This document shows, piece after piece, positions 1 through 45,799 of a stretch of DNA of 64,000 nucleotides. A model generated the notes under the pieces. It did not search any database. It was not told the DNA's origin and saw nothing but the letters and a program-made list of their open reading frames with translations. Both the position numbers and the translations under genes were made by a program. How positions within the stretch are numbered: position 1 is the first letter of the stretch; each line of letters opens with the position of its first letter. The stretch comes from Rhynchopus sp. YZ270_cl-10 (lineage: Eukaryota), in NCBI GenBank assembly GCA_964035575.1, contig OZ037836.1, forward strand, positions 310,001 through 374,000, written 5' to 3'.

Positions 1-3000
1 CACCGTCTCACCCGGTACGTCCAACCCCGAGAAGATCTCAAAGTCCAGCATGAGCTCGAGCTGCGTGATGGGGGGCGTTGTGCCATCAGGCCAACGCAAT
101 GCAGCGAGCCATGCCTTCAGCGCCCAGAAGTGGTCTTCCGTCCAGCGTGGACTCTTCTTCATGTACTTGCTCCCCCACAGTACGTTCTCCAGCGGGTTGT
201 AGCTCTCAAGCACTGCACCCTCCTGAGGATTCCAGCCCCAAGGAAAAAGGGATTGGCCCACCACCGCCTGCTTCTTCTTCTTCTGCGAAAACCCATGTTC
301 CACGTCGTACTTCTGCCTTGCCAGCGCGATGCTGACCAGCATCAGTTGCACACGACGCACCGTCTGCTCTCTCTCCGCAACACTCAGCTCCTGCAAGAAT
401 ATCGTCGGCACCAGGCCAAAGTCCAAGAAGCACGGGGGTGCGTCTTTGAGCAAAACCCGGAGTTTTCCGATGTCCTCTCCACGAATTTCGTCCCACTGCG
501 GGCACCACCACCAAGCGTGTCTCCGGTCCTCTATCGCCTCACCACAGTATCGGCACAACGAAGTCTCCACCTCCTTGTTCCTCAGCAGCTGCACCCCCAC
601 CAACTGAGAGCCCGACAAGGCTCCGCGTATCGCGCCCGCCAGGTATCTGTCGGTCGTGCGGTCCTTCCACACTGCGTTCGTCGCCTGGCGATCCACACCT
701 CCCTCAATGCCCTGCATCGACGGCCTCGTCGTCACTGTCAGGCGGTACGCGTGTGCACGGATGCCCTCTCTCAGCTCATGCAGCCATTTGCCCTTGTCCC
801 ACAGACGAACGTGCACCCTCAACCCGATGTGTGTGGTCCAGAAGTCGAAGCTGCTCCACCGCCATCCGTATCGCTCCAGGTCGTCCCACAACAACTCTAT
901 CACACCCTTCTTGTGCACTTCAGTTACCCTTGGGTTGGCAACCCCAGGGTTCTCGCGCCGGAGACGTGCCAGATCTGAAGCCCTGTCACGCCGCCTCACC
1001 TCCCGCTCCGCTCTTCGGTCATGTGCCAGCCTCCACACTTCTTCTGCTTCTCTCCGCATGCCGTCATCTTCTGTCAGTCGGAGAAAGGCCGCCATCCTCC
1101 TCTGCACAATCTCCGCTGGCGCATCAATCCCAACCGGAGATAACACATGCCACACAATGTTCAGCGTGCGCTGCTTCCTGCCCTGCCCCCAGACTGCCAG
1201 TGCTGCCCCTTGCCTCAGCGTCTCTATCGTCTGCTTCGAGAAGTCTGTCACTTCGCACCCATGCAACGCTGCCATCATTGGTCCCCTTGCGCCAATAAGT
1301 GCCTTCTCAGTGAAGGATAATGGCACACTCGAAACCCTCGTAAACACACGGTGCGCAGTAACCGCACGCTCACGCGCGATGGGCCCGAAGTTCCCCTTTC
1401 CAGCCAAAATGTCTGCTCCAACCGCCCCGAACTGCTTCTTGTCGGGGAAGAGCCCGTCGCCAAGTCCAAACTTCGTCTTTGTTCCCTCCTTCGAGGTAAA
1501 CCCTACGCACTTCTCTGCCTTGACCTCCATGTCCGCAGCAGTGATAAACTCCTTCGTCACCCTCGCAGCACCATGCACCTCCGCTTCCGTGTTCGCCACA
1601 GCATACACGTCGTCAGCGTACCCCATGGCGATTGCTCCGGTCCTTCTCGTCACTGCAGATCCCCACACCGCCATCAGCGCGTTCAACAGCACGACAGAAA
1701 GTGGGCATCCTTGCAGGATACCATTTGTCGTACGAAAGGTGCCTCCCACACCTACGTCTCCCAACTTGAAGCGGCGTTCCATGGCAGTGTACGCAGCCCT
1801 CAGTGGTCCAAGAATACGCCAGTGCGCGCCCCACTCCTCCGCCAGCGATAGCACAATCTCATGAGGTACACGATCGAAACATTTGGCGTAGTCGATCGTG
1901 AAGCCCCATACCTGGTCTGTGTCGTCACCCGACAGTACCGCCTTCTCCAGCTTGAGCGACAGATGCCAGTACAGGTGTGCAGTGCTGTGTCCTGCTCTGA
2001 AGCCGTGCTGTTGCTCACCAATCCAGCTTTCCTGCCACTTTATCAGCCTTCGCAACCTCGCTGCCGCCCACAGTCTGTAGATACACGAAGTGATCGTGAT
2101 AGGTCGCTGCTTCAGCGGGGTGTCGTCTTCCCCTTTGGGGATGAGCGCAATGAGTGCTCTCATCAAAGAAGGCGGCCACTCCCCCGTACACTCAATCGCA
2201 TCAAACACATCTGCCAGCCTGTCGAGCAGCACCAGAGGAAGCGCCTTCAGCTCTGCCATGCGCCAACCCTCCACCCCAGCAGAAGTTTGTGTCTTCATCC
2301 TCCCCAGAGTTTGCTGCAACTCCTTCCCCGTCAGCCTGTCCATCTGCATCGCTTGCCCCTTGCCTGCGATGTCTTCTGTAAACTTCTCCCTAAACGCACC
2401 CCAGTCGGGCTCTGGCTTTTCCGCATATCGGCGAAGAATCGGCATCCACGCCTCATGCAGGAGGGTGTCCATCTCCTCAGCGTTGGCGGTGAACTTCCCA
2501 TCCTCGTTCTTCAGGGCAGTCATCTTCCTGTACTGTTCGTCCTTGCAGTATTTGAAGATCGCCTTGGGAGCGTTGTGCCATGCATCCCGTAGGCGCTGCC
2601 GCCAGTCCTCCAGTCGCTTCCGCTTCACTCGGTCCGCAAGCGTTGACACCTTCACTCGCACGGCTCTGCACAGATCCACCAAAGCCTCCTCGCTAGGCAT
2701 ATCCTGTTGCAGTGAGTCGTCGTCCAGCAGAACACGCAGTTCCTTCCGCGCCTTGCTCCAACAATTGCACACGTCATGTGGCGGCACACCACCGTTGCTC
2801 CTCACGTACCACAGCCGACATTCTTCCAGCCTGCCCACGTTCTTCGTCAGCCTTCTCTGGCTCACTGTCAGAGCGTCCCCTTCCTTGCTCTGCTTCGCAG
2901 TCCGGTGCTTCGGCTTCGGGTCAAACGTTTTGCCTCTTCCGCAATACGCCTTCGTCGGGCCCTCAATCTCGCCTTCGCACGCCTGCAGCAAGAAGTCCTC

Positions 3001-3915
3001 TGCCCACTTGTTCCACTGTATCCACCTATCCTGAGGGTGTTGAAGCGCCCCCCACTGCAGCTCCTTGCTCGCAAACGCCTTTTGTGCATTCTTCACGCCT
3101 TGTCCACACTTGTCCAAAGGGAACTGCTTCGGCAGAGTGTACGCGAGCACGATCTGCCTGTACGCACCTACATCCAGCGCTATCTCTACCGGTCTGTGCT
3201 GCGGGAGCCCAGAGTCGTGGACAACCTTCACAGACGACAGCCCTGTGCACGCAGCTCGGTTCAGCAGAACGTAATCGAGCCTCTTGCGGATCTCCTTGCC
3301 GTCTTTCACCGAGAAGTAGGTGTTGTCCGGGGTCGTCCCAAGCACCCTTGCGTGCTCTTCGGCAGTGTCCTTCCACCATCCTGTGTCCAGTGTAGCAGCC
3401 AGCACACCTGATTTCCCTGGACCTGCGTTGAAATCCCCACCAATCACCCCAGGAATATCACCAAGCTCTGCAGCAGCCTCCATCACCTCGCCAAGTATTT
3501 TCTCCCTAGCCTCCGGGTCCGCCGACGGCGCGTAGACGGAGGTCACGTCGATCCACTCGTTGCCTTTGCCGTACGCCACCTTCGCCTTCACCCATCGCGT
3601 TGAGTCCCAGAGGTTCTTTTCCAAGGTTGAGGAGGGCGGGCTCGTGAGCACAGGTATTCCCTCTTGCACCAGAATCGCAACACCACCAGATTTCGCTTCT
3701 TCGGCCGACCTCCATTCCGGCAACTCCTTACCCCACACCACCTGCCAACCCTGCTCGCGGTACTCGATGGAGAGGCGCTTCTGCGTCGTCACGGTGCACT
3801 TTGTCTCTTGTACCAGAACAACTTGAGCATCCTCCGCAACCTTCAGCAGAGAACTCCCGCCTGTCTGCAGCGCCGTCACATTGCTGCACACTATCTTTAG
3901 TGGGGCAAGGCCCAC
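1..3915 (-). CDS. A1 ORF2: APE endonuclease + reverse transcriptase (runs off window)
   Basis: Constant 14637-bp offset to A2 ORF2, so no net indel. YADD is encoded near 1610 and the GTG start matches A2/A3. Confidence 0.9.
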   Translation of the reverse strand, partial: MGLAPLKIVCSNVTALQTGGSSLLKVAEDAQVVLVQETKCTVTTQKRLSIEYREQGWQVVWGKELPEWRSAEEAKSGGVAILVQEGIPVLTSPPSSTLEKNLWDSTRWVKAKVAYGKGNEWIDVTSVYAPSADPEAREKILGEVMEAAAELGDIPGVIGGDFNAGPGKSGVLAATLDTGWWKDTAEEHARVLGTTPDNTYFSVKDGKEIRKRLDYVLLNRAACTGLSSVKVVHDSGLPQHRPVEIALDVGAYRQIVLAYTLPKQFPLDKCGQGVKNAQKAFASKELQWGALQHPQDRWIQWNKWAEDFLLQACEGEIEGPTKAYCGRGKTFDPKPKHRTAKQSKEGDALTVSQRRLTKNVGRLEECRLWYVRSNGGVPPHDVCNCWSKARKELRVLLDDDSLQQDMPSEEALVDLCRAVRVKVSTLADRVKRKRLEDWRQRLRDAWHNAPKAIFKYCKDEQYRKMTALKNEDGKFTANAEEMDTLLHEAWMPILRRYAEKPEPDWGAFREKFTEDIAGKGQAMQMDRLTGKELQQTLGRMKTQTSAGVEGWRMAELKALPLVLLDRLADVFDAIECTGEWPPSLMRALIALIPKGEDDTPLKQRPITITSCIYRLWAAARLRRLIKWQESWIGEQQHGFRAGHSTAHLYWHLSLKLEKAVLSGDDTDQVWGFTIDYAKCFDRVPHEIVLSLAEEWGAHWRILGPLRAAYTAMERRFKLGDVGVGGTFRTTNGILQGCPLSVVLLNALMAVWGSAVTRRTGAIAMGYADDVYAVANTEAEVHGAARVTKEFITAADMEVKAEKCVGFTSKEGTKTKFGLGDGLFPDKKQFGAVGADILAGKGNFGPIARERAVTAHRVFTRVSSVPLSFTEKALIGARGPMMAALHGCEVTDFSKQTIETLRQGAALAVWGQGRKQRTLNIVWHVLSPVGIDAPAEIVQRRMAAFLRLTEDDGMRREAEEVWRLAHDRRAEREVRRRDRASDLARLRRENPGVANPRVTEVHKKGVIELLWDDLERYGWRWSSFDFWTTHIGLRVHVRLWDKGKWLHELREGIRAHAYRLTVTTRPSMQGIEGGVDRQATNAVWKDRTTDRYLAGAIRGALSGSQLVGVQLLRNKEVETSLCRYCGEAIEDRRHAWWWCPQWDEIRGEDIGKLRVLLKDAPPCFLDFGLVPTIFLQELSVAEREQTVRRVQLMLVSIALARQKYDVEHGFSQKKKKQAVVGQSLFPWGWNPQEGAVLESYNPLENVLWGSKYMKKSPRWTEDHFWALKAWLAALRWPDGTTPPITQLELMLDFEIFSGLDVPGETV

Positions 3916-3923
3916 GGTCGTGA

Positions 3924-6791
3924 TTAATACGACCTTTCTCGGTTATTGTCCGTGTCGCGGGGGCGGCTGTTCTCGTCCGTCGTCGTATCTTTCTTCTTCT
4001 CCTCACCGCCACGATCTTGAGCATCCCTGGCCTTGTCCTTGGCCTCGCGAGCTGCCTTCTTCAGCGCCTCGTTCTCCTCCGTGAGCCGCTTGCTCTCCGC
4101 TGCCAGCTGCACGTTCTGGTCCTTGCACTGCTGCACCGTCTCCTTCATCTCAGCACATTCTGCTCTGAGCTGTTCCATGTCGAGAGGCTGCGGCGGTTGC
4201 GCGACTGGTGCCGACTGCTGCGGCTGTCCCATCATCCGCTTCTGTGCCTCCAACATCTCCTTCTGCTGCTCCATGACGCCCTTCATCATCTCCCGCAATT
4301 CCTTCATCTCCTTCTTCATCATCTCTATCTCGTCCTGCGCTGCTGATGAAGCTGCGGGAGGTGCCGGAGCCGCCGGTGCCCCTGTTGCAGGGTGGGGTCG
4401 AGCTGCAGGTGGTGCGTATCCCCTCGCCTTAGCCGCCCACGTGCCAGCGCCGCTCTCTGCTGCTCCTTGCCTCGGTACTGGGAACTGCGCCAGAGGGAAA
4501 CCCCACGGATTCGCACCCACCTTCTGCACACGACGCCCTTCCTTCACCGCACACACCGTCAACACCAATCCACCCACCTCCAGCACCCCTTCTGTGCTCG
4601 GGCACGGCACATCCGACGTAACCGTCCACTTGTGCCCTCGCGACAGCACCTTCACCGTCCAGCTCGCCTCCCTCGCCAGCCCCTCACACAACAGCTGGAC
4701 CGACGTGTTCGCCGGAATTCCCCCAATCTCGTACCTGTGTCCCTGCACGACGACGTCCTCCTGCACAAGAAGCCTCTTCGCAGCCTCCAAGTCCCCCTTC
4801 ATCACCCGCACCGCGTAGCCCCCTTCCCCTACGGCGAGTCCGCGCACGCTATCCTCCATGTTCTCCTCAACAAGGTCCAGCCGTGCCAGAGCAGACTCCA
4901 GCGGTTCCGCCTTCCACAACAACCCACAGTCCCCGTACTCCTTTGCCTGGAAGAGGTGCCGCACAAACACCCCTTCCCGTCCGCTTCTCCTCAGCATGGC
5001 GCACACCACCATGTCCTCCGTCACGTCCACAGACATCTCCATCCATCCTCCTCTCTCCAAGCCGCGTCCACACCGCACCCCCTGCAACCCGTACCACCGA
5101 CGCATGCGTTGCTCTCCCTTTGTGCGTCCCTCCCCCTGGAGCAACATCGTTCTGCCCATCAGCGTAATCAGCTTGCTCGAGAACGTGCTCTCCACCGGCT
5201 TCACCACGTCGTCCAAGTTAGTTGTCATGGACGACAGCCACACTTCTTCCACCTTTGCTCCCCGCTCCGTCTTCACCGCCACCTTCGCCTTCTTCGTGCG
5301 CGCTGCACCCGTACACTTCGAACGGGACACAATCACCATCTGCGGAAGTTGGTGCAGCAACTGTAACCCCTGCAGAAGTTCGCTCGCCTTCCACGCAACT
5401 GCCGCCACCTGCGTCACCCCTTCCACATTGCTGGGCACTGCATCCCACACCGGTATTTTCCATCCCTGGGGCGCCAGGTTCAGTGCATCCTCCGCTGCGC
5501 TCTGGGTCACCGCCGTCGCCTTCTTCTTCCCCTTCACAGCTGTAGCCGGTACGTGCAGTTGCGGTTGTCCCACTGCGCACAGAAGTTCCTCCCCCACCTT
5601 CAACCCTGCCGATTCCACAGCACCGTAGTGTACCCCCTCGAACCCCAGGACTACGTCAGACTCCGTGAAGGTGAGGTTAGCCTTCTCCGGAGTTCCTTCT
5701 GCCAGCTGCCCGTCGGACTGCCCGTCGATCAGCGTAGCCCGTAGCGCGTTCTCCGGTCCAACGTCAAGCACAACAATGCGGACCTTCATCACCTTGGCGA
5801 TCGCATGGAGACACAAATGGTCCCCCCATGTCCCCAGCTGCGCCATGCCTGCCAGGTATGCATCAATGCACCCCTCGTCCACAAATGGGCTGTAGTGTGC
5901 CTTCTGCTCCTTCATCACCTCAACTGCGAGCCTGCGGAAGCCTGCGTGACCATTCGGGGACCGCTCCACAGACCACGCCACCGACCGGAACAGACAGTCC
6001 CCCTTGCCCCCACATTCCTCCCATCGCAACCCCCATCTTTCCAGGTGTCCCTTGACACCTGGCTGCACGGCAGCTGCCAGCGTCTCCGTCCTGCATCCCC
6101 TTGCGGCGTACCCCCCTCCTGCAACCAGCTGGGCGTTGCTCTCTGCCTCCTTCATCCCCTTCCCCGCCTTCGCGCAGTGCTGCAGCGATACCCTTATCCC
6201 CCTCTTCTTCAACTCGCCCAGCAGCGCCTTCACCTTCTCCAGCCTCGGCTTCAGCAACGACGAGTCGCAGGCGTGCCCCTCAGCCACCTGCCTCCAGACC
6301 ACCAAGTGCGTGACCCACACGCGCGCGTGGGTGCCCTTCGGGTACGACCCGTCGGCCACCCCTTGAAGCCCGAGCAGGATGCCCTCGTACGCGGCTTCTG
6401 CCTTGGTGATGTTTGCCAGGCGGCGGGTTACTTCCCAGTGCGTTCCTGGTTCCTCCTCCGTCGCATCACGCGCCAGCGCACACAGCCCCGTCGTGTCCCG
6501 CACCTTCTCGCCCGTCACTACTCCGATGAAGACATCGGGATCCTTCCTCTCCTCCCCTGCACTGCGCTTCATGCCGCCTGCCCCCGGGTAGGCGGGCTGC
6601 CGTAGCCCCTCAGTCCAGTGCGCCTGCTCCGCCGCCGCCGTCACCTCGTCACTGCAATAGCAGTTCCACGACCTGCAGCACACAGGCGCCGGCGGGTGTG
6701 GCGTCCACTTGGCCGATCCGTGTGACGGATCGTTGCCCGGGATACTCCGCGTGGAGGCTGGACGTGACTTCGACACCATGTACGAAAACAT
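3924..6791 (-). CDS. A1 ORF1: degenerate RNase H-like + OTU protease + RRM-like + coiled coil
   Basis: 955-aa ORF with OTU motifs KGDCLFRS, WGDH and GVHYGAV and a C-terminal heptad-rich segment. The true start may be the later MKRSAG. Confidence 0.88.
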   Translation of the reverse strand: MFSYMVSKSRPASTRSIPGNDPSHGSAKWTPHPPAPVCCRSWNCYCSDEVTAAAEQAHWTEGLRQPAYPGAGGMKRSAGEERKDPDVFIGVVTGEKVRDTTGLCALARDATEEEPGTHWEVTRRLANITKAEAAYEGILLGLQGVADGSYPKGTHARVWVTHLVVWRQVAEGHACDSSLLKPRLEKVKALLGELKKRGIRVSLQHCAKAGKGMKEAESNAQLVAGGGYAARGCRTETLAAAVQPGVKGHLERWGLRWEECGGKGDCLFRSVAWSVERSPNGHAGFRRLAVEVMKEQKAHYSPFVDEGCIDAYLAGMAQLGTWGDHLCLHAIAKVMKVRIVVLDVGPENALRATLIDGQSDGQLAEGTPEKANLTFTESDVVLGFEGVHYGAVESAGLKVGEELLCAVGQPQLHVPATAVKGKKKATAVTQSAAEDALNLAPQGWKIPVWDAVPSNVEGVTQVAAVAWKASELLQGLQLLHQLPQMVIVSRSKCTGAARTKKAKVAVKTERGAKVEEVWLSSMTTNLDDVVKPVESTFSSKLITLMGRTMLLQGEGRTKGEQRMRRWYGLQGVRCGRGLERGGWMEMSVDVTEDMVVCAMLRRSGREGVFVRHLFQAKEYGDCGLLWKAEPLESALARLDLVEENMEDSVRGLAVGEGGYAVRVMKGDLEAAKRLLVQEDVVVQGHRYEIGGIPANTSVQLLCEGLAREASWTVKVLSRGHKWTVTSDVPCPSTEGVLEVGGLVLTVCAVKEGRRVQKVGANPWGFPLAQFPVPRQGAAESGAGTWAAKARGYAPPAARPHPATGAPAAPAPPAASSAAQDEIEMMKKEMKELREMMKGVMEQQKEMLEAQKRMMGQPQQSAPVAQPPQPLDMEQLRAECAEMKETVQQCKDQNVQLAAESKRLTEENEALKKAAREAKDKARDAQDRGGEEKKKDTTTDENSRPRDTDNNRERSY

Positions 6792-6831
6792 TGTTTATAT
6801 TCTTTCTTTTTGTGTACGTTGTGTGTATCCC
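6702..6831 (-). ncRNA. HDV-like self-cleaving ribozyme candidate at A1 5' end
   Basis: P1 GGGATAC/GTATCCC, P2 CGTCCA/TGGACG, L3 TCCACGC, GG-GCAA, P4 CGATCCG/CGGATCG, J4/2 GCCAAG. Confidence 0.8.
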
Positions 6832-9383: not shown

Positions 9384-10479
9384 TCACATGCACACACATT
9401 TGCACTTGGTATCTTCTTTGACCACTTCAGCGGCGTGGCTAATGTCGTTGGTATCGTCCATGAGGCTACCACTACGGCTCTGCACATATTCTGACACAAC
9501 ACTGCTCGATCCGGTGACGTTGATGCTGCTTGTGAATATGGTACATCCTTCCAGGAAGCCTTTCTCAATGTCCGTCGCATTCGTCAACCCAGATAAGTTA
9601 AGTGTTCGCAATGCGCTGCAGTTGTAGAGAAAGGACCTCGTCACATTGTTCCACCCAGAAATATCCAATGTGGTCAATGAGGTGCAGTCTGAGAGAAAGT
9701 TGTCGCCAACCTGCGTCACATTGCTCCACCCAGACAAGTCAAGTGTTCGCAATGCGATATTAAACTTGAAAAACGTGATCCACCCCCGCAAAAAGAAAAA
9801 CCAGCAAAAGGGAAGGATGGCACCACGGTGTGCCAGAGAGTGGCTTGATCCCATTTGCTGACTTATACCCAACAAAGAAGCGACACCTAAGTGAACAGGG
9901 GCCGTATACCACCGCTGGTGGCCTAGGTTAGTATATAAGCCAGGTCAAGGTCCGCACTCTGGCAGCGTCAAAAGAAATAAACAACAATAAAACCACCAGT
10001 CATTCCAATGGGAGGAACGAATGACTGGCATCTCCTAATTCTCTAAACTGCGGTGAGTGGAACACCCAACTCCAAGATGCAAACCACTGCCGCAGGTTAG
10101 CACCTACAAAAAGCAAAGAAAAGCAAAGAAAAGAAAAGCAAAAGCTGTGCATGGTCGTAAAGTAGGTGCAGGGTCGCTTAAATCCCTGAGGGCACAAAAA
10201 GCCCAGCATACACCTCCTCCAGTTGCTTTGGACCCTCCAGTATCATGTGCCCGGGTTTGCAAAAGTGCAATGCAACCATCCCACGCGTGGCCTTCGTTCA
10301 CTCAAAAAAGAGATTATATCCGGGGACGCCAGGGCAAAAAGGCCGGGGGGCTGCCACCTCACGTTTTTGTCCCCTCAAGTGTTCGCAATGCGATGCAGGA
10401 GGAGAGAAAGTAGTCTCCCAGTTGCGTCACATTGTTCCACCTAGAAATATCCAGTGTGGTCAATGAGGTGCACCTGGAG
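9384..10479 (-). pseudogene. 3' part of a CaaX-type LRR gene, interrupted by a SINE-like insert and truncated by a satellite
   Basis: LRRs plus DTNDISHAAEVVKEDTKCKCVCM, the same tail as gene 61742..62974. Confidence 0.85.
9759..10374 (-). mobile_element. 616-bp non-autonomous (SINE-like) partner of family A
   Basis: 20-bp TSD tcaagtgttcgcaatgcgat (9739-9758, 10375-10394). The 3' end shares CAAGTTTA, GGGGRTGGRTCACGT and CGTGGYGCC with family A. No credible ORF. Confidence 0.85.
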
Positions 10480-11073: not shown

Positions 11074-11122
11074 AATGGAATAAAGTAATGAGCAGCTGGC
11101 CTCTCAAAAGATGCACAGTGCC

Positions 11123-13451: not shown

Positions 13452-13708
13452 TCATTGTGCGTGTCTCCGTCGCTTCTGGATTTGCTCGGGGGATTCGTCT
13501 CTGCTTCGTTTCAGACGTGATTCAACTACAAGCTTGCTCAGCTTCTTGCTATTCCTCACTTCATTGGACACAGCACTGCTGCATCCGGAAAGGTAAATGC
13601 TCGTCAACGAAGTGCATTTCGCAGCAAAAAACGTAGTTTTCATGAAAGAATGCGCCTTGATAGACGTCACATTGCTGAGTGGTGATAAATCGAGGGTGGT
13701 TAAGCTCT
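13452..13708 (-). pseudogene. 3' half of NLS-type UBL-LRR gene split by A2
   Basis: SLTTLDLSPLSNVT...KRSRDESPEQIQKRRRHAQ, resuming at the TSD. Confidence 0.88.
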
Positions 13709-13785
13709 TAAACTTGTTGACGTGACCCATCCCCACCTTCTCAGATGAACTGAGAGGTGAGAAAGGCGCCACGTGACCACCTTCG

Positions 13786-16700
13786 TTATCGCGGGGCAAA
13801 CCCGAGACGTCCCTGGGACATGTCGTGGTGCCCTTTCCCGCAACAGACCTGAGGAGACGCCAGCATCGGCAATCCGTCCTTCTTCCTCTTCCGTCCCGCT
13901 TGCACACATGCACCGCAAGCACCCCTCCCGTGGGCCACACAGTTGTGGTGCTTCTGACAGCACTGCTTCATCGACACGTTCCCCGCACCCGCACACTGTC
14001 CGCACATCGAGAAGTTATGCACCTCACATGCCTCACGCGCCTCCACACAGTCACCCAAAATAAGCTCATCACAATGGTGCGTCGCACAACACGCCGTGAT
14101 GGAGATGTTGTTGTGCTCGCAGTCCCCGCATCGCATCTTGGTGTGTATGTCACACACCCGCATGGTCCCCACCTTCCTCCTTACGTCCACACGCACAGCC
14201 GGTGTCTGCCGCCTGCGTGCCTCCTGCCGTCGAGTCTGCTCTGCCGCAACTGCAGCTATCGCAGCTCTCTTACGCACCTCCTCTGCCTGCTTCTGCTCTT
14301 CCTTCGCTTCCTTCCAGCGTTCGCTCTTTGCTGAGCGTTCTTCCGGAGTGGAAGTGTGAGCTACAACCGCGTCGTCACCCCACCTCGCCTTCGTCTTTTC
14401 TTTTTGTCGGGAGAGTGCTCTCCGCGACGTCGCCTTCTCCTGCAACTCCTTCAGGTACCCTTCAACCCCCGCCGCATGCGTCAGCACAGGTCGCACAGAA
14501 TACCCCGTCATGATCCCCGCACCCAGTTCCTGTAAGTGGTGCACCTCCCTCTTCTCCACTCCTTTCCATACGTCCCTTCCATGCGCCATCGTTTTCGCCG
14601 TCCGCATCATGGCACCAAAAGATTCTGCCCTCTTCAACACCGTCTCACCCGGTACGTCCAACCCCGAGAAGATCTCAAAGTCCAGCATGAGCTCGAGCTG
14701 CGTGATGGGGGGCGTTGTGCCATCAGGCCAACGCAATGCAGCGAGCCATGCCTTCAGCGCCCAGAAGTGGTCTTCCGTCCAGCGTGGACTCTTCTTCATG
14801 TGCTTGCTCCCCCACAGTACGTTCTCCAGCGGGTTGTAGCTCTCAAGCACTGCACCCTCCGGAGGATTCCAGCCCCAAGGAAAAAGGGATTGGCCCACCA
14901 CCGCCTGCTTCTTCTTCTTCTGCGAAAACCCATGTTCGACGTCGTACTTCTGCCTTGCCAGCGCGATGTTGACCAGCATCAGTTGCACACGTCGCACAGT
15001 CTGCTCTCTCTCCGCAACACTCAGCTCCTGCAAGAATATCGTCGGCACCAGGCCAAAGTCCAAGAAGCACGGGGGTGCGTCTTTGAGCAAAACCCGGAGT
15101 TTTCCGATGTCCTCTCCACGAATTTCGTCCCACTGCGGGCACCACCACCAAGCGTGTCTCCGGTCCTCTATCGCCTCACCACAGTATCGGCACAACGAAG
15201 TCTCCACCTCCTTGTTCCTCAGCAGCTGCACCCCCACCAACTGAGAGCCCGACAAGGCTCCGCGTATCGCGCCCGCCAGGTATCTGTCGGTCGTGCGGTC
15301 CTTCCACACTGCGTTCGTCGCCTGGCGATCCACACCTCCCTCAATGCCCTGCATTGACGGCCTCGTCGTCACTGTCAGGCGGTACGCGTGTGCACGGATG
15401 CCCTCTCTCAGCTCATGCAGCCATTTGCCCTTGTCCCACAGACGAACGTGCACCCTCAACCCGATGTGTGTGGTCCAGAAGTCGAAGCTGCTCCACCGCC
15501 ATCCGTATCGCTCCAGGTCGTCCCACAACAACTCTATCACACCCTTCTTGTGCACTTCAGTTACCCTTGGGTTGGCAACCCCAGGGTTCTCACGCCGGAG
15601 ACGTGCCAGCTCTGAAGCCCTGTCACGCCGCCTCACCTCCCGCTCCGCTCTTCGGTCATGTGCCAGCCTCCACACTTCTTCTGCTTCTCTCCGCATGCCG
15701 TCATCTTCTGTCAGTCGGAGAAAGGCCGCCATCCTCCTCTGCACAATCTCCGCTGGCGCATCAATCCCAACCGGAGATAACACATGCCACACAATGTTCA
15801 GCGTGCGCTGCTTCCTGCCCTGCCCCCAGACTGCCAGTGCTGCCCCTTGCCTCAGCGTCTCTATCGTCTGCTTCGAGAAGTCTGTCACTTCGCACCCATG
15901 CAACGCTGCCATCATTGGTCCCCTTGCGCCAATAAGTGCCTTCTCAGTGAAGGATAATGGCACACTCGAAACCCTCGTAAATACACGGTGCGCAGTAACC
16001 GCACGCTCACGCGCGATGGGCCCGAAGTTCCCCTTTCCAGCCAAAATGTCTGCTCCAACCGCCCCGAACTGCTTCTTGTCGGGGAAGAACCCGTCGCCAA
16101 GTCCAAACTTCGTCTTTGTTCCCTCCTTCGAGGTAAACCCTACGCACTTCTCTGCCTTGACCTCCATGTCCGCAGCAGTGATAAACTCCTTCGTCACCCT
16201 CGCAGCACCATGCACCTCCGCTTCCGTGTTCGCCACAGCATACACGTCGTCAGCGTACCCCATGGCGATTGCTCCGGTCCTTCTCGTCACTGCAGATCCC
16301 CACACCGCCATCAGCGCGTTCAACAGCACGACAGAAAGCGGGCATCCTTGCAGGATACCATTTGTCGTACGGAAAGCGCCTCCCACACCTACGTCTCCCA
16401 ACTTGAAGCGGCGTTCCATGGCAGTGTACGCCGCCCTCAGTGGTCCAAGAATGCGCCAGTGCGCGCCCCACTCCTCCGCCAGCGATAGCACAATCTCATG
16501 AGGTACACGATCGAAACATTTGGCGTAGTCAATCGTGAAGCCCCATACCTGGTCTGTGTCGTCACCCGACAGCACCGCCTTCTCCAGTTTGAGCGACAAA
16601 TGCCAGTACAGGTGTGCAGTGCTGTGTCCTGCTCTGAAGCCGTGCTGTTGCTCACCAATCCAGCTTTCCTGCCACTTTATCAGCCTTCGCAACCTCGCTG

Positions 16701-18552
16701 CCGCCCACAGTCTGTACACACACGAAGTAATCGTGATTGGTCGCTGCTTCAGCGGAGTGTCGTCTTCCCCTTTGGGGATGAGCGCAATGAGTGCTCTCAT
16801 CAAAGAAGGCGGCCACTCTCCCGTACACTCAATCGCATCAAACACATCTGCCAGCCTGTCGAGCAGCACCAGAGGAAGCGCCTTCAGCTCTGCCATGCGC
16901 CAACCCTCCACCCCAGCAGAAGTTTGTGTCTTCATCCTCCCCAGAGTTTGCTGCAACTCCTTCCCCGTCAGCCTGTCCATCTGCATCGCTTGTCCCTTGC
17001 CTGCGATGTCTTCTGCAAACTTCTCCCTGAACGCACCCCAGTCGGGCTCTGGCTTTTCCGCATATCGGCGAAGAATCGGCATCCACGCCTCATGCAGGAG
17101 GGTGTCCATCTCCTCAGCGTTGGCGGTGAACTTCCCATCCTCGTTCTTCAGGGCAGTCATCTTCCTGTACTGCTCGTCCTTGCAGTATTTGAAGATCGCC
17201 TTGGGAGCATTGTGCCATGCATCCCGTAGGCGCTGCCGCCAGTCCTCCAGTCGCTTCCGCTTCACTCGGTCCGCAAGCGTTGACACCTTCACTCGCACGG
17301 CTCTGCACAGATCCACCAAAGCCTCCTCGCTAGGCATATCCTGTTGCAGTGAGTCGTCGTCCAGCAGAACACGCAGTTCCTTCCGCGCCTTGCTCCAACA
17401 ATTGCACACGTCATGTGGCGGCACACCACCGTTGCTCCTCACGTACCACAGTCGACATTCTTCCAGCCTGCCCACGTTCTTCGTCAGCCTTCTCTGGCTC
17501 ACCGTCAGAGCGTCCCCTTCCTTGCTCTGCTTCGCAGTCCGGTGCTTCGGTGTGGGGTCGAACGTTCTGCCTCTACCGCAATACGCCTTCGTCGGGCCCT
17601 CAATCTCGCCTTCGCACGCCTGCAGCAAGAAGTCCTCTGCCCACTTGTTCCACTGGATCCACCTATCCTGAGGGTGTTGAAGCGCCCCCCACTGCAGCTC
17701 CTTGTTCGCAAACGCCTTTTGTGCCGTCTTCACACCCTGTCCACACTTCTCCAAAGGGAACTGCTTCGGCAGAGTGTACGCGAGCACGATCTGCCTGTAC
17801 GCACCTACATCCAGCGCTATCTCTACCGGTCTGTGCTGCGGGAGCCCAGAGTCGTGGACAACCTTCACAGACGACAGCCCTGTGCACGCAGCTCGGTTCA
17901 GCAGAACGTAATCGAGCCTCTTGCGGATCTCCTTGCCCTCCTTCACTGAGAAGTAGGTGTTCTCCGGGGTCGTCCCAAGCACCCTTGCGTGCTCTTCGGC
18001 AGTGTCCTTCCACCATCCTGTGTCTAGCGTAGCAGCCAGCACACCTGATTTCCCGGGACCTGCGTTGAAGTCCCCACCAATCACCCCAGGAATGTCACCA
18101 AGCTCTGCAGCAGCCTCCATCACCTCGCCAAGTATTTTCTCCCTAGCCTCCGGGTCCGCCGACGGCGCGTAGACGGAGGTCACGTCGATCCACTCGTTGC
18201 CTTTGCCGTACGCCACCTTCGCCTTCACCCATCGCGTTGAGTCCCAGAGGTTCTTTTCCAAGGTTGAGGAGGGCGGGCTCGTGAGCACAGGTATTCCCTC
18301 TTGCACCAGAATCGCAACACCACCAGATTTCGCTTCTTCGGCCGACCTCCATTCCGGCAACTCCTTACCCCACACCACCTGCCAACCCTGCTTGCGGTAC
18401 TCGATGGAGAGGCGCTTCTGCGTCGTCACGGTGCACTTTGTCTCTTGTACCAGAACAACTTGAGCATCCTCCGCAACCTTCAGCAGAGAACTCCCGCCTG
18501 TCTGCAGCGCCGTCACATTGCTGCACACTATCTTTAGTGGGGCAAGGCCCAC
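13786..18552 (-). CDS. A2 ORF2: APE + RT + CCHC knuckle + Cys/His repeats (1588 aa, GTG start)
   Basis: APE motifs VQET, GGDFNA, RLDYVL and QHRPV. RT motifs IDYAKCFDRV, QGCPLS and YADD. Knuckle CRYC..H..C. Confidence 0.95.
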   Translation of the reverse strand: MGLAPLKIVCSNVTALQTGGSSLLKVAEDAQVVLVQETKCTVTTQKRLSIEYRKQGWQVVWGKELPEWRSAEEAKSGGVAILVQEGIPVLTSPPSSTLEKNLWDSTRWVKAKVAYGKGNEWIDVTSVYAPSADPEAREKILGEVMEAAAELGDIPGVIGGDFNAGPGKSGVLAATLDTGWWKDTAEEHARVLGTTPENTYFSVKEGKEIRKRLDYVLLNRAACTGLSSVKVVHDSGLPQHRPVEIALDVGAYRQIVLAYTLPKQFPLEKCGQGVKTAQKAFANKELQWGALQHPQDRWIQWNKWAEDFLLQACEGEIEGPTKAYCGRGRTFDPTPKHRTAKQSKEGDALTVSQRRLTKNVGRLEECRLWYVRSNGGVPPHDVCNCWSKARKELRVLLDDDSLQQDMPSEEALVDLCRAVRVKVSTLADRVKRKRLEDWRQRLRDAWHNAPKAIFKYCKDEQYRKMTALKNEDGKFTANAEEMDTLLHEAWMPILRRYAEKPEPDWGAFREKFAEDIAGKGQAMQMDRLTGKELQQTLGRMKTQTSAGVEGWRMAELKALPLVLLDRLADVFDAIECTGEWPPSLMRALIALIPKGEDDTPLKQRPITITSCVYRLWAAARLRRLIKWQESWIGEQQHGFRAGHSTAHLYWHLSLKLEKAVLSGDDTDQVWGFTIDYAKCFDRVPHEIVLSLAEEWGAHWRILGPLRAAYTAMERRFKLGDVGVGGAFRTTNGILQGCPLSVVLLNALMAVWGSAVTRRTGAIAMGYADDVYAVANTEAEVHGAARVTKEFITAADMEVKAEKCVGFTSKEGTKTKFGLGDGFFPDKKQFGAVGADILAGKGNFGPIARERAVTAHRVFTRVSSVPLSFTEKALIGARGPMMAALHGCEVTDFSKQTIETLRQGAALAVWGQGRKQRTLNIVWHVLSPVGIDAPAEIVQRRMAAFLRLTEDDGMRREAEEVWRLAHDRRAEREVRRRDRASELARLRRENPGVANPRVTEVHKKGVIELLWDDLERYGWRWSSFDFWTTHIGLRVHVRLWDKGKWLHELREGIRAHAYRLTVTTRPSMQGIEGGVDRQATNAVWKDRTTDRYLAGAIRGALSGSQLVGVQLLRNKEVETSLCRYCGEAIEDRRHAWWWCPQWDEIRGEDIGKLRVLLKDAPPCFLDFGLVPTIFLQELSVAEREQTVRRVQLMLVNIALARQKYDVEHGFSQKKKKQAVVGQSLFPWGWNPPEGAVLESYNPLENVLWGSKHMKKSPRWTEDHFWALKAWLAALRWPDGTTPPITQLELMLDFEIFSGLDVPGETVLKRAESFGAMMRTAKTMAHGRDVWKGVEKREVHHLQELGAGIMTGYSVRPVLTHAAGVEGYLKELQEKATSRRALSRQKEKTKARWGDDAVVAHTSTPEERSAKSERWKEAKEEQKQAEEVRKRAAIAAVAAEQTRRQEARRRQTPAVRVDVRRKVGTMRVCDIHTKMRCGDCEHNNISITACCATHHCDELILGDCVEAREACEVHNFSMCGQCAGAGNVSMKQCCQKHHNCVAHGRGACGACVQAGRKRKKDGLPMLASPQVCCGKGHHDMSQGRLGFAPR

Positions 18553-18560
18553 GGTCGTGA

Positions 18561-21446
18561 TTAATACGACCCTCCTTCTCGCCTCTGGTCCGTGTCGCGG
18601 GGGCGGCTGTTCTCGTCCGTCGTCGTATCCTTCTTCTCCTCACCGCCATCTGCACGACGATCTTGAGCGTTCCTGGCCTTGTCCTTGGCCTCGCGAGCTG
18701 CCTTCTTCAGCGCCTCGTTCTCCTCCGTGAGCCGCTTGCTCTCCGCTGCCAGCTGCACATTCTGCTCCTTGCACTGCTGCATCGTCTCCTTCATCTCAGC
18801 ACAGTCTGCTCTGAGCTGTTCCATGCCAAGAGGCTGCGGCGGCTGCTCGACTGGTGCCGACTGCTGCGGTTGTCCCATCATCCGCTTCTGTGCCTCCAAC
18901 ATTTCCTTCTGCTGTTCCATGACGCCCTTCATCATCTCCCGCAATTCCTTCATTTCCTTCTTCATCAGCTCGATCTCTTCCTGCGCTGCTGATGAAGCTG
19001 CGGGAGGTGCCGGAGCCGCCGGTGCCCCTGTTGCAGGGTGGGGCCGAGCTGCAGGTGGTGCGTATCCCCTCGCCTTAGCCGCCCACGTGCCAGCGCCGCT
19101 CTCTGCTGCTCCTTGCCTCGGTACTGGGAACTGCGCCAGAGGGAAACCCCACGGATTCGCACCCACCTTCTGCACACGACGCCCTTCCTTCACCGCACAC
19201 ACCGTCAACACCAATCCACCCACCTCCAGCACCCCTTCTGTGCTCGGGCACGGCACATCCGACGTAACCGTCCACTTGTGCCCTCGCGACAGCACCTTCA
19301 CCGTCCAGCTCGCCTCTCTCGCCAGCCCCTCACACAACAGCTGGACCGACGTGTTCGCCGGAATTCCCCCAATCTCGTATCTGTGTCCCTGCACGACGAC
19401 GTCCTCCTGCACAAGAAGCCTCTTCGCAGCCTCCAAGTCCCCCTTCATGACACGCACCGCGTAGCCCCCTTCCCCTACGGCGAGTCCGCGCACGCTATCC
19501 TCCAGGTTCTCCTCCGCAAGGTCCAGCCGTGCCAGAGCAGACTCCAGCGGTTCCGCCTTCCACAACAACCCACAGTCCCCGTACTCCTTTGCCTGGAAGA
19601 GGTGCCGCACAAACACCCCTTCCCGTCCGCTTCTCTTCAGCATGGCGCACACCATGTCCTCCGTCACGTCCACAGACATCTCCATCCATCCTCCTTTCTC
19701 CAAGCCGCGTCCACACCGCACCCCCTGCAACCCGTACCACCGACGCATGCGTTGCTCTCCCTTTGTGCGTCCTTCTCCCGCCCTGATGAGGGTCCGGCCC
19801 ATCAGCGTAACCAGCTTGCTCGTGAACGCAGTACTCTCCTCCACCGGCTTCACCACCTTGTCCAGGTCCGACGTCATGGTGCCCAGCCAGACTTCCTCCA
19901 TACGTGCGCCTCGGTCGGTCCGCACTGCCACCTTCACCTTCCTTGTACGTGTCGCACCTGTGCACTTCGCGCGTGAGACAAGCACCACCTGGGGGAGTGT
20001 GTGCAGCAATTCCAACCCCTGCACGAGTTCACCCGACCACGCAACTGCCGCCACCTGCGTCACCCCTTCCACAATATCAGGTACTGCCTCCCACACCGGA
20101 ATTTTCCACCCTGGAGAGTCCAAGACTAAGTTCAGCGGGGCCTCCGCATCCGTGCGCACCGATGGCGCCTTCTTCCTGCCCGTCACAGCCGTGCCCGGCA
20201 CGTGCAACTGCGGTTGCCCCACTGCGCACATGATCTCCTCGCCCGCCTGCAGCCCTGCCGACGTCACTGCACCGTAGTGCACTCCTCCCTCGTACGCCAG
20301 AACGATGTCTGACTCCCGGAACGCCAGGTTCGCCTTCTCCGCTGACCCCTCCTTCAATGCCCCGTCCGTTTGCCCGTCAATCACTGTAGCCCTCAGCACA
20401 TTCCCCGGCCCGACGTCCATCACCACAACACGGGTCCGCATCGCCCTCGCAATCGCGTGGAGACACAGATGGTCCCCCCACGTCCCCAGCTGCGCCATCG
20501 CGGCCAGATACCCCTCTGCCCCCGCTTCCCCTTCGATGAATGGGCTGTAAAACGCCGCATCCTTCCTCATCACCCCCACCGCCAGCTTGCGGAACCCTGC
20601 ATGCCCGTTCGGGGACGACTCCGCAGACCACGCCACTGATCGGAAGAGACAGTCCCCTTTGCCCCCGCACTCCTCCCATCTCATACCCCAAGGCTCCAAT
20701 AACCCCTTGATCCCTGGCTGCGTCGTCGGCGCCTGCTTCTCCGCCGTGCATCCCCTTGCGGCGTAGCTACCACCTGCCACCAGCGTCGCGCTCGACTCCG
20801 CTGCCGTCATCCCCTGTCCCGCCCTCGCACTGTGCAACACGGAGACCTGTATCCCCCTCGTCTTGAGGTTGGATACCATCGATCTCACCTTCTCCAGTCG
20901 TGGCCTGAGCAGCTGCGAGTCGCACGGTTGCCCCGCGGATACCTGCTTCCACACCTGCAGATGCGACACCCACACCCGTGCATGCACCCCTTTCTTGTAG
21001 GATCCGTCCGTGACACCTCGCAGCCCCAAGAGGATTCCTTCGTATGCCGCCTCCGCCTTCGTCACTCCTGCCAGTCGCTTCGTCAACTCCCAGTGCGTCA
21101 CCGGCTCGTCCTCCGTTGCTTCACGTGCCAGCGCACACAGCCCCGTCGCGTCCCGCACCTTCTCGCCAGGCGCGACCCCAACGAAGATGTCGGGGTCTCT
21201 CTTCTCGTCGTCGTCAGCTGCACGCTTCATGCCTCCAGCACCCGGGTACAGCAGTTGGTGCCCAATAGCCCTGTGCGCCAGCTCAGCTGCCGACGTCGTC
21301 TCCTCGCTGCACCTGCAGTTCCAGGAATCGCAACACACAGGCGCCGGCGGGTGTGGGGTCCATTTGGCCGATCCGTGTGACGGATCGTTGCCCGGGATAC
21401 TCCGCGTGGAGGCTGGACGTGACTTCGACACCATGTACGAAAACAT
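18561..21446 (-). CDS. A2 ORF1 (961 aa), variant with diverged N-terminal half
   Basis: Same architecture as A1 ORF1, with OTU KGDCLFRS...WGDH...HYGAV retained. Confidence 0.88.
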   Translation of the reverse strand: MFSYMVSKSRPASTRSIPGNDPSHGSAKWTPHPPAPVCCDSWNCRCSEETTSAAELAHRAIGHQLLYPGAGGMKRAADDDEKRDPDIFVGVAPGEKVRDATGLCALAREATEDEPVTHWELTKRLAGVTKAEAAYEGILLGLRGVTDGSYKKGVHARVWVSHLQVWKQVSAGQPCDSQLLRPRLEKVRSMVSNLKTRGIQVSVLHSARAGQGMTAAESSATLVAGGSYAARGCTAEKQAPTTQPGIKGLLEPWGMRWEECGGKGDCLFRSVAWSAESSPNGHAGFRKLAVGVMRKDAAFYSPFIEGEAGAEGYLAAMAQLGTWGDHLCLHAIARAMRTRVVVMDVGPGNVLRATVIDGQTDGALKEGSAEKANLAFRESDIVLAYEGGVHYGAVTSAGLQAGEEIMCAVGQPQLHVPGTAVTGRKKAPSVRTDAEAPLNLVLDSPGWKIPVWEAVPDIVEGVTQVAAVAWSGELVQGLELLHTLPQVVLVSRAKCTGATRTRKVKVAVRTDRGARMEEVWLGTMTSDLDKVVKPVEESTAFTSKLVTLMGRTLIRAGEGRTKGEQRMRRWYGLQGVRCGRGLEKGGWMEMSVDVTEDMVCAMLKRSGREGVFVRHLFQAKEYGDCGLLWKAEPLESALARLDLAEENLEDSVRGLAVGEGGYAVRVMKGDLEAAKRLLVQEDVVVQGHRYEIGGIPANTSVQLLCEGLAREASWTVKVLSRGHKWTVTSDVPCPSTEGVLEVGGLVLTVCAVKEGRRVQKVGANPWGFPLAQFPVPRQGAAESGAGTWAAKARGYAPPAARPHPATGAPAAPAPPAASSAAQEEIELMKKEMKELREMMKGVMEQQKEMLEAQKRMMGQPQQSAPVEQPPQPLGMEQLRADCAEMKETMQQCKEQNVQLAAESKRLTEENEALKKAAREAKDKARNAQDRRADGGEEKKDTTTDENSRPRDTDQRREGGSY

Positions 21447-21486
21447 TGTTTATATTCTTTCTTTTTGTGTACGTTGTGTGTATCCC
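21357..21486 (-). ncRNA. HDV-like ribozyme candidate at A2 5' end
   Basis: Same fold as A1. J4/2 is GCCAAA and one terminal P2 pair is lost. Confidence 0.78.
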
Positions 21487-22316
21487 TCGAGGGTGGTTAA
21501 GCTCTGGCATCCGGTAAGAAAGTCGCAATCAATCTGCGTCACATTGTTGAGGGGTGATAAATCCAGGCTCGATAAGTTCTTGCAGTCCGCAAGGAAGCAC
21601 GCACCGACCTGCGTCACGTCGCTGAGTGGAGATAAATCGATGCTGGTTAAGCTCGTGCAGTTGGCAAGAAAGCTGTGATCAATCTGCGTCACGTTGCTGA
21701 ATGCTGACAAATCGATGTTGGTTAAGCTGATGCAGAGGAATAGGAACCAATGACCAACATGCGTCACATTGCTGAGCAGAGATAAATCGATAGTGGCTAA
21801 GCTAGTGCAGCAGTAAAGAAATCCTTTACCAATGTGCGTAACATTGCCCAACCCAGAGAGGTCAATACTTGTCAACGAGGTGCACTCCTGCAGGAAGTTG
21901 TCTCCAATGTGAGTCACAATGGACTCAGCACTGAGATCAAGTCTCGTCAACGAAGTGCCTGTCAAGAACCCAGCAGGAATGACAGTCGCAACCTCCGCCT
22001 GCAGAAGCAAACACGCAACCTCAGGATCATCCACATCCTCCAACGCCTCTGCCGTGATGTCTGTCACACCCAACGCATGAAGCTCTGCAATGGCTTCGTA
22101 CTTCTGTGTTTTTGTGAGGATGATTGTGTCACCAGCACTCAGCTGCGTCATGTCCGCTCCTTCTCCCATCGCTTCGTCTCCGAAACTCATGCAAAAGCCG
22201 TCTTCAGGCAACCCCATTGCAGACGCCACCTTCCGCCGCAAGCCCTCCACTGTGTCATCTGCACCCACCTCGACTGTGTGCTGATTCGTGTCGAAACCCT
22301 TGATGTTCAGGTCCAT
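21487..22316 (-). pseudogene. 5' half of NLS-type UBL-LRR gene split by A2
   Basis: MDLNIKGFDTNQ UBL plus LDLSPL LRRs to GCQSLTTL, then reads into the element (EGYTQRTQKERI*). Confidence 0.9.
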
Positions 22317-33976: not shown

Positions 33977-34053
33977 TAAACTTGTTGACGTGACCCATCC
34001 CCACCTTCTCAGATGAACTGAGAGGTGAGAAAGGCGCCACGTGACCACCTTCG

Positions 34054-38820: not shown

Positions 38821-38828
38821 GGTCGTGA

Positions 38829-41693: not shown

Positions 41694-41733
41694 TGTTTAT
41701 ATTCTTTCTTTTTGTGTACGTTGTGTGTATCCC
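41604..41733 (-). ncRNA. HDV-like ribozyme candidate at A3 5' end
   Basis: Same sequence and fold as the A1 candidate. Confidence 0.8.
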
Positions 41734-43877: not shown

Positions 43878-45799
43878 GTTTAAACTTGTTGACGTGACCC
43901 ATCCCCACCTTCTCAGATGAACTGAGAGGTGAGAAAGGCGCCACGTGACCACCTTCGTTATCGCGGGGCAAACCCGAGACGCCCCTGGGACGTGTCGTGG
44001 TGCCCTTTCCCGCAACAGGCCTGAGGAGACGCCAGCATCGGCAATCCGTCCTTCTTCCTCTTCCGTCCCGCCTGCACACATGCACCGCAAGCACCCCTCC
44101 CGTGGGCCACACAGTTGTGGTGCTTCTGACAGCACTGCTTCATCGACACGTTCCCCGCACCCGCACACTGTCCGCACATCGAGAAGTTATGCACCTCACA
44201 CGCCTCACGCGCCTCCACACAGTCACCCAAAATAAGCTCATCACAATGGTGCGTCGCACAACACGCCGTGATGGAGATGTTGTTGTGCTCGCAGTCCCCG
44301 CATCGCATCTTGGTGTGTATGTCACACACCCGCATGGCCCCCACCTTCCTCCTTACGTCCACACGCACAGCCGGTGTCTGCCGCCTGCGTGCCTCCTGTC
44401 GTCGAATCTGCTCTGCCGCAACTGCAGCTATCGCAGCTCTACTACGCACCTCCTCTGCCTGCTTCTGCTCTTCCTTCGCTTCCTTCCAGCGTTCGTTCTT
44501 TGCTGAGCGTTCTTCCGGAGTGGAAGTATGAGCCACATCCGCGTCGTCACCCCACCTCGCCTTCGTCTTTTCCTTTTGTCGGGAGAGTGCTCTCCGCGAC
44601 GTCGCCTTCTCCTGCAACTCCTTCAGGTATCCTTCAACCCCCGCCGCATGCGTCAGCACAGGTCGCACAGAATACCCCGTCATGATCCCCGCACCCAGTT
44701 CCTGTAAGTGGTGCACCTCCCTCTTCTCCACTCCTTTCCATACGTCCCTTCCATGCGCCATAGTTTTCGCCGTCCGCATCATGGCACCAAAAGATTCGGC
44801 CCTCTTCAACACCGTCTCACCCGGTACGTCCAACCCCGAGAAGATCTCAAAGTCCAGCATGAGCTCGAGCTGCGTGATGGGGGGCGTTGTGCCATCAGGC
44901 CAACGCAATGCAGCGAGCCATGCCTTCAGCGCCCAGAAGTGGTCTTCCGTCCAGCGTGGACTCTTCTTCATGTACTTGCTCCCCCACAGTACGTTCTCCA
45001 GCGGGTTGTAGCTCTCAAGCACTGCACCCTCCTGAGGATTCCAGCCCCAAGGAAAAAGGGATTGGCCCACCACCGCTTGCTTCTTCTTCTTCTGCGAAAA
45101 CCCATGTTCCACGTCGTACTTCTGCCTTGCCAGCGCGATGCTGACCAGCATCAGTTGCACACGACGCACCGTCTGCTCTCTCTCCGCAACACTCAGCTCC
45201 TGCAAGAATATCGTCGGCACCAGGCCAAAGTCCAAGAAGCACGGGGGTGCGTCTTTGAGCAAAACCCGGAGTTTTCCGATGTCCTCTCCACGAATTTCGT
45301 CCCACTGCGGGCACCACCACCAAGCGTGTCTCCGGTCCTCTATCGCCTCACCACAGTATCGGCACAACGAAGTCTCCACCTCCTTGTTCCTCAGCAGCTG
45401 CACCCCCACCAACTGAGAGCCCGACAAGGCTCCGCGTATCGCGCCCGCCAGGTATCTGTCGGTCGTGCGGTCCTTCCACACTGCGTTCGTCGCCTGGCGA
45501 TCCACACCTCCCTCAATGCCCTGCATCGACGGCCTCGTCGTCACTGTCAGGCGGTACGCGTGTGCACGGATGCCCTCTCTCAGCTCATGCAGCCATTTGC
45601 CCTTGTCCCACAGACGAACGTGCACCCTCAACCCGATGTGTGTGGTCCAGAAGTCGAAGCTGCTCCACCGCCATCCGTATCGCTCCAGGTCGTCCCACAA
45701 CAACTCTATCACACCCTTCTTGTGCACTTCAGTAACCCTTGGGTTGGCAACCCCAGGGTTCTCGCGCCGGAGACGTGCCAGATCTGAAGCCCTGTCACG
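43878..45799 (-). mobile_element. Family A, 5'-truncated copy A4 (ORF2 C-terminal part and 3' UTR)
   Basis: About 17-bp TSD ccagggtggttaaagat (43861-43877, 45800-45816) with cc microhomology at the 5' junction. Contains ORF 43958..45727. Confidence 0.93.

Follow-up and report, generated by a model that had tools for sequence, protein, structure and literature searches.

A LINE family in Rhynchopus sp. YZ270_cl-10 with a preferred landing site at one codon register of a leucine-rich repeat unit

Why do the copies of one retrotransposon family interrupt different genes of Rhynchopus sp. YZ270_cl-10 at the same codon of a degenerate protein repeat? The stretch of DNA analysed here, called the window throughout, is 64,000 nt long (GenBank assembly GCA_964035575.1, contig OZ037836.1, positions 310,001 to 374,000), and positions below are those of the window. 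It is a tandem cluster of minus-strand genes that encode a ubiquitin-like domain followed by 25-residue BspA-type leucine-rich repeat (LRR) units, as identified with Pfam. These genes are interrupted by a long interspersed nuclear element (LINE), which we call family A, and by a 616-bp non-coding element. Four target-site duplications (TSDs) and the 5' junction of a further copy share one register of the 25-codon LRR unit.

Four family A copies were identified by self-comparison of the window, and TSDs were taken as the longest exact repeats at the junctions. A2 is a full-length element of 7,778 bp (13709..21486, minus strand) that starts with GGGATAC and ends with CAAGTTTA, with no poly(A). 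The 3' copy of its 19-nt TSD (13690..13708, minus strand) starts at +1 after the Cys codon of the LRR unit, and the 5' copy (21487..21505, minus strand) ends within the Asp codon of the LxxLD motif. The host gene of A2 is split into a 5' part with the ubiquitin-like domain and LRR units of the DLSPL subtype (21487..22316, minus strand), which runs into the element leader, and a 3' part with the last LRR unit, the cap and a basic tail (13452..13708, minus strand). A3 (33977..41733, minus strand) is also full length, with both open reading frames (ORFs) open, and its host is of the DLSGW/CaaX subtype. Its 18-nt TSD (33959-33976 and 41734-41751) starts at +2 after the Cys codon. A4 (43878..45799, minus strand) is 5'-truncated and has a 17-nt TSD (43861-43877 and 45800-45816) that also starts at +2, with 3 extra nt at the 3' junction. 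A1 (1..6831, minus strand) leaves the window at its 3' end, so that its TSD and Asp codon are deduced; the 5' part of its LRR host is at 6832-7435, and its 5' junction (6831/6832) falls after CTG G. The 616-bp insert (9759..10374, minus strand) has a 20-nt TSD (9739-9758 and 10375-10394) that starts at +0, with 2 extra nt at the 3' junction.

All four visible TSDs are perfect and begin with A, and both ends wobble by no more than 2 nt. They end within the Asp codon, after GA in A2, A3 and the 616-bp element and after G in A4. When the empty sites are rebuilt, each translates to an open CxxLxxLD unit; for A3 and A4, the window also contains uninterrupted paralogues, which the rebuilt sites match at 96% and 98%, respectively. 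A sequence-only reading of this DNA had placed every TSD start 0-2 nt after the Cys codon and every 5' junction in the Asp codon of LxxLD, in five genes of both host subtypes. The first placement was recovered in 4/4 TSDs, with the sequences as that reading wrote them, and the second in 5/5 junctions of the window, counting the deduced Asp codon of A1. The chance of four more junctions falling in the same 2-nt interval is about 2e-11, or about 5e-7 given LRR coding DNA. Together, the junctions and this estimate strongly support register specificity across the five genes and both host subtypes.

Further insertions were sought in predicted proteins and contigs. Where the element lies in sense orientation, the host ORF continues into its leader and, therefore, ends in one of three tails, which served as the diagnostic. 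The off-window junctions are known from predicted proteins, for which the same species is assumed because the read-through tails are identical and several of them come from a contig as long as that of the window's own proteins. A query with the last 44 residues of A2's protein favours LRR hosts, cannot report non-LRR hosts and is not exhaustive, as A3's own host was missed. Among the best 11 of its 16 candidates, seven carried a tail: A2's own protein and six new ones, all of which end CxxL/IxxL-E-GYTQR, i.e. GA|GGG. No other register was seen among those best 11 of 16, though the tail words are common to any register. A tail-only search, blind to the host, gave six matches among 166 candidates. 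These were A1's protein, four LRR proteins not found before, each with the ending CxxLxxL|G, and P0137, a proline-rich protein without LRRs. None of the six matches among the 166 candidates carried the third-frame tail, though the profile scores that tail at 129 bits. A further search did not find it either and gave P0135 and four weak matches, three of which were unrelated repeat proteins.

In total, 11 further junctions were found, and 10 of them are at CxxLxxL|D in other ubiquitin-like/LRR genes on several contigs. This brings the family A 5' junctions at the target codon to 14 of 15 and, with the 616-bp element, gives 15 host-gene copies, five read as DNA and 10 deduced from predicted proteins. 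It had been proposed that a scatter of other copies across LRR positions would speak against the register; all 10 further LRR junctions were at the target codon, with no scatter. Every coding junction is in the sense orientation to the host gene. One more in-register 3' junction was found in contigs of runs X1 and X4 (a joint of 21567 to 13702). A pattern scan of metagenome contigs and viral contigs for the ends of family A gave no matches, and ORF2 as the query of a locus search gave no relative in metagenome contigs.

The nucleotide sequences of the targets were compared with each other and with the empty LRR units. All five targets read as DNA contain the core TGC-N6-TT-N7-CTNG, with CTTTCT seven bases upstream, and much of this motif is common to all LRR units. 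The 22-nt cores of the five sites share only 9-19 bases pairwise. The motif TGC-N6-TTR-N6-CTNG occurs 54 times on the minus strand of the window (the sense strand of the LRR genes) and two times on the plus strand; inside the elements it is absent. Leu occupies the position directly ahead of the junction in 15/15 targets compared to 84/128 untargeted units (p=0.003), and in the query-unbiased subset it does so in 9/9 (p=0.027). An extended motif, defined post hoc, is present in 5/5 targets and in 18/62 empty units. The gene at 24212-25648, in which CTC is the first Leu codon in most LRR units, is insertion-free. The Leu count suggests a nucleotide-level choice among LRR units.

We think it probable that family A is found at one LRR codon because its ORF2 protein would recognise a degenerate DNA motif encoded by the unit. 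In target-primed reverse transcription, the 3' junction marks the first nick, which is on the antisense strand, and the 5' junction marks the second (PMC3747384). In R1Bm and Tx1L, the APE domain sets target choice (PMC1919474, PMC1950540), and a hairpin loop is involved (PMC1950540). The predicted DNA-reading hairpin of the family A APE domain has 14 residues, five of them basic, and is thus somewhat longer than in most aligned relatives (9-13 residues) and more basic, which is a weak correlate. The ORF2 protein of family A would bind its own RNA via the 3' stem-loop, which the 616-bp element copies. The antisense strand would be nicked 0-2 nt inside the Cys-codon boundary, leaving a 3'-terminal T that could pair with the terminal A of the RNA to prime reverse transcription. 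Such T/A priming is proposed because all TSDs begin with A and poly(A) is missing, and it would explain the 0-2 nt wobble. The sense strand would be nicked 17-20 nt away, after CTN-G(A). With a motif about every 75 bp in many genes, there would be hundreds of redundant landing sites, and looser matches would take the remainder.

Several observations weigh against this explanation. In the off-window host P0133, Ile takes the place of the residue encoded by TTR, so TTR is not absolute, and the two nick sites have no obvious motif in common on opposite strands. The R1Bm endonuclease reads about 8-10 bp, which its authors consider insufficient for precise targeting (PMC1919474), and thus the APE domain alone may not explain a motif of 35 bp. 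One of the six LRR-blind junctions is that of P0137, the proline-rich protein without LRRs, which ends CVSLLSPPL|G. Two 3' loose ends, from run X2 at 13707 and run X6 at 13708, are off-register and, by eye, keep the leading A and only part of the TTR/ACC pattern. X6 comes from a different study and carries a different organism label; the sole 3' flank shown for it is off-register, and its 5'-end contig reaches 2 nt into a matching flank. Also, the ORF2 cluster has 33 members, so the junction sample covers a minority of copies, and this sample is skewed to coding, sense insertions, since the read-through method is blind to intergenic and antisense ones.

Because of P0137, the two loose ends and the minority of cluster copies that the sample covers, specificity is relative, and the LRR unit is a preferred, not exclusive, landing site. 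With P0137 and the loose ends, family A does not keep to the strict target exclusivity of R2 and R1. Recognition of TGC-N6-TTR-N6-CTNG, as proposed in the sequence-only reading, therefore survives in part: the core is found in 5/5 targets and a choice among units is suggested, but TTR is not absolute and the specificity is not strict.

The off-register insertions (P0137, X2, X6) could also reflect a short or loose endonuclease preference, with tethering to gene clusters or selection concentrating the copies and the motif picking the best site in each unit. The bias of the sample to coding, sense insertions would fit such a view, as would the unrelated LINE family B, which lies in the same gene family at a different site. 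LRR genes make up a small share of any proteome, and for this reason the in-register counts of 5/5 in the window and 5/6 in the LRR-blind search weigh against a loose preference. There are no copies in antisense or elsewhere in the LRR unit, and the targets are a sequence subset of the units. We therefore regard this explanation as unlikely.

The main competing explanation is that it is chiefly RNA that sets the register. A host co-transcript would run past CAAGTTTA into the LRR flank of the donor site and anneal to a nicked unit, so that each generation would inherit the register. The absence of poly(A) at all 3' junctions (0/4) and the sense orientation of all copies to their hosts agree with this, and the 3 extra nt of A4 equal the codon with which a common LRR unit begins (TGC AAC TCT TTA), as expected of a donor flank. 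In R1Bm, accurate priming depends on target sequence further downstream (PMC7265360, citing Anzai 2005), and diplonemid genes are reported to be likely co-transcribed in groups (PMC10161547). However, the distance from the element end to the register varies (0, +1, +2), and both copies of each TSD are perfect and target-specific. The non-LRR insertion in P0137 still ends Leu|G, and the 5' junction is equally fixed although it lies beyond the reach of a read-through RNA. Guidance by RNA is, in our estimate, quite unlikely as the source of the register.

The explanations above take the insertions to be separate events. No two of the 15 LRR hosts have more than 25 of their last 32 residues in common, compared to 98-100% identity over ORF2 for the family A copies in the window. 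The number of LRR units ahead of the junction differs between hosts, and both host subtypes occur with both 5' subtypes of the element. No copies sharing a TSD and flanks were seen. Since the hosts are far more diverged than the elements, independent and recent insertion is strongly supported by these comparisons. That gene duplication, unequal crossing-over or gene conversion between LRR repeats spread a single ancestral insertion, or a few, is very improbable, and the sequence-only reading had already called duplication of one insertion unlikely. The array is duplicated and rearranged, with near-identical paralogues and a chimera of LRR and hsp70 genes, and the last unit ahead of the cap is the site of both A2 and A4. 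However, the TSDs are identical on both sides of each copy and different between copies, the flanks are much more diverged than the elements, a 5'-truncated copy and a different element, which is non-coding, occupy the same register, and empty paralogues of the A3 and A4 sites are present.

By its APE and reverse transcriptase (RT) domains, variable TSDs and 5'-truncated copy, family A is an APE-type retrotransposon without long terminal repeats, i.e. a LINE; self-comparison of the family found no terminal repeats. Independent insertions at the same position and in the same orientation of a multicopy sequence, by which target-specific elements are known, were found for it. ORF1 of A2 (18561..21449, minus strand; 962 aa stop to stop) has a predicted RNase H-like fold, an OTU protease-like domain and a coiled coil. 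The OTU domain is found by Pfam (2.7e-10) and by similarity to OTUD3 (1e-7), and it alone passes an E value of 0.001 in the fold search. The RNase H-like N-terminus is predicted from a weak Atlas match to RNase H/RVT_3 (0.91) and weak Foldseek matches to RNase H1, with a structure model of low confidence (mean pLDDT 35), and by eye it is without the catalytic acidic residues. ORF2 of A2 (13786..18639, minus strand; 1,617 aa stop to stop) has an APE endonuclease, an RT, a CCHC motif and a Cys/His-rich C-terminus. In Pfam, Exo_endo_phos (PF03372) scores 1.8e-8 and RVT_1 (PF00078) 2.9e-22, with the APE domain upstream of the RT. The catalytic motifs of ORF2 are intact in the alignment, and the best PDB matches are L1/R2 ORF structures. 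The ORFs are open in A1 (visible part), A2 and A3.

A2 differs from A1/A3 in the 5' half of ORF1, where identity is 72-77% (19700-21400 compared to 40000-41650), and is 99-100% identical to them in ORF2. Two ORF1 subtypes are, thus, carried on one ORF2, both with the same target. At 18550-18640, no ATG precedes the APE domain in ORF2, which overlaps the stop codon of ORF1 in the -1 frame; judging from this arrangement, ORF2 is likely expressed by frameshifting or AUG-independent reinitiation. In the 3' untranslated region, a stem-loop is predicted at 13721..13773 (minus strand) that is identical in A2, A3 and A4 and is followed by a 12-nt single-stranded end. The hairpin has z = -4.07, and none of 200 shuffles was equally stable. 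The last 22 nt of the element (13709-13730, minus strand) contain an ATG that is in frame with the LRR remnant of A2 (MGHVNKF, then KSLTTLDL), so a C-terminal host fragment could be translated from it at A2. The LRR remnant of A3 is out of frame with this ATG.

The 616-bp element keeps the 8-pair stem base of family A, with its bulged G and identical last 8 nt; one C-G pair is replaced by U-A, a compensatory change. Beyond this 3' end, it showed no similarity to family A. ARAGORN and Rfam searches detected no tRNA-, 5S- or 7SL-derived head and no relevant match. We conclude that it is better named a non-autonomous partner than a short interspersed nuclear element (SINE), as it had been called, and its shared 3' end suggests that it is likely mobilised by the family A ORF2 protein. 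It is a single copy in the window, and no read-through tail of it was found among 50%-cluster representatives, which is a weak test.

In the RT tree, family A groups with diplonemid, dinoflagellate and unnamed RTs (support 0.98), sister to P0002 and apart from vertebrate LINEs. The tree, made with FastTree from 118 of 121 sequences and rooted at the midpoint, is without a named reference for Tx1, R1 or ingi. Among named proteins, those closest to ORF2 are from Diplonema papillatum, with 31-35% identity over most of APE-RT, which makes the host a likely diplonemid. These LINE-like ORFs, annotated as R2, jockey or X-element polyproteins, belong to the same RT clade. The available portions of PMC10161547 and PMC12278014 mention no target preference of diplonemid LINEs, and rigorous transposon identification in D. 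papillatum is still to come (PMC10161547).

The closest precedent is ingi/RIME in the trypanosome RHS genes. Ingi/RIME and L1Tc/NARTc each pair a trypanosome LINE with a short partner and show relative specificity for a degenerate motif, with a hot spot in RHS (PMC7563717, PMC5814959, PMC3820030). As in ingi/RIME, a euglenozoan APE-RT LINE and its short partner share one position of a protein-coding multigene family and leave split pseudogenes. However, the ingi clade has a 12-bp TSD (PMC3820030), a poly(dA) tail and a 76-79 bp 5' signature (Pr77, an HDV-like ribozyme), whereas family A has TSDs of 17-20 bp and no poly(A), and membership of the ingi clade was ruled out by TSD length and tail. 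Family A also differs in its two ORFs and in the lack of a Pfam RNase H match in ORF2. Each RHS gene has a single site, and family A targets an internal repeat unit, which gives one gene several equivalent sites. No Rfam ribozyme was matched in 9300-22500 at E<=1, and the 5' end of the element is not unusually structured.

Family A also resembles members of the R1 and Tx1 clades (R1Bm, SART1, TRAS1, Tx1L, Keno, Mutsu) in having two ORFs, an APE domain, a fixed position and orientation, and staggered nicks. The targets of these clades are rRNA, tRNA, snRNA and spliced-leader genes, microsatellites, telomeric repeats and transposons (PMC4640811, PMC8869645), neither of which lists a protein repeat, and transposons and microsatellites are also given for Tx1 (PMC4494074). 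Most of the listed targets are near-invariant, in contrast to the target cores and wobbling nicks of family A. The RT of family A groups with diplonemid and dinoflagellate elements, in a tree that has no named R1 or Tx1 reference. TcTREZO of Trypanosoma cruzi is site-preferring and found mostly in MASP pseudogenes, but it is composed of sequences from different genomic regions, whereas family A is an autonomous LINE with intact ORFs (PMC5814959). In searches of the openly licensed literature, we found no precedent for an element that targets LRRs or protein repeats or for an OTU-bearing LINE; among protein genes, the RHS genes with their one hot spot come closest.

A broader view, which we hold to be doubtful, is that family A is a previously undescribed LINE lineage with the LRR coding unit as its dedicated target, addressed by a codon-degenerate motif plus read-through flank RNA. 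Such a lineage would trim ubiquitin-like/LRR proteins at exact repeat boundaries, remove the CaaX or basic tail, leave stable shortened variants, diversify the gene family and constitute a naturally tolerant, retargetable integrase. Whether or not this view holds, the safe harbour of family A is a repeat unit within a protein family, and its target tolerates wide sequence change. Its copies thereby form a mutagenesis series made by nature, on which the choice of both nicks by an APE-type LINE can be studied, and also whether protein, RNA or both serve as the address. Besides R1 and Tx1, family A is a likely third case in which target preference arose among APE elements, and its insertions inactivate or truncate members of a large LRR family in this protist.

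The host genes fall into two subtypes. Subtype 1 comprises the DLSPL/DLTPL genes with a basic tail, and subtype 2 the DLSGW genes ending CVCM/CVFM; we take these ends to be NLS-like (nuclear localization signal) and CaaX-like, respectively. About 67 LRR units lie within the 30,235 host bases of the window, and about half of the LRR gene copies are interrupted or rearranged. Atlas matches for the host protein were all <0.9. LINE family B (46499-55359, minus strand) is unrelated to family A and has an OTU domain in ORF1 and an APE-RT, preceded by what is presumably a 2A-like peptide. A link between the OTU domain of family A ORF1 and the ubiquitin-like hosts was set aside, since family B has an OTU domain too. 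The family B TSD is 20 nt long and lies in the codons for the linker NLTKTQK of A4's host gene, which makes a second target in the ubiquitin-like/LRR gene family possible, from one site only. Its RT is near-identical to P0028 and P0047.

A fusion joins an LRR gene to the 3' end of an hsp70 gene at 26713-27700, and 26713-27676 duplicates 29777-30734. The hsp70 side of this junction resembles the family A target out of frame (A, then TTG six bases on); the fusion is possibly a nick-initiated rearrangement or due to chance. At 10480-11075, about 85 copies of the 7-bp unit AGTACAC lie between the 3' untranslated region of one LRR gene and the middle of the next gene. The array takes the place of the 5' part of that next LRR gene, and GTAC is common to the junction.

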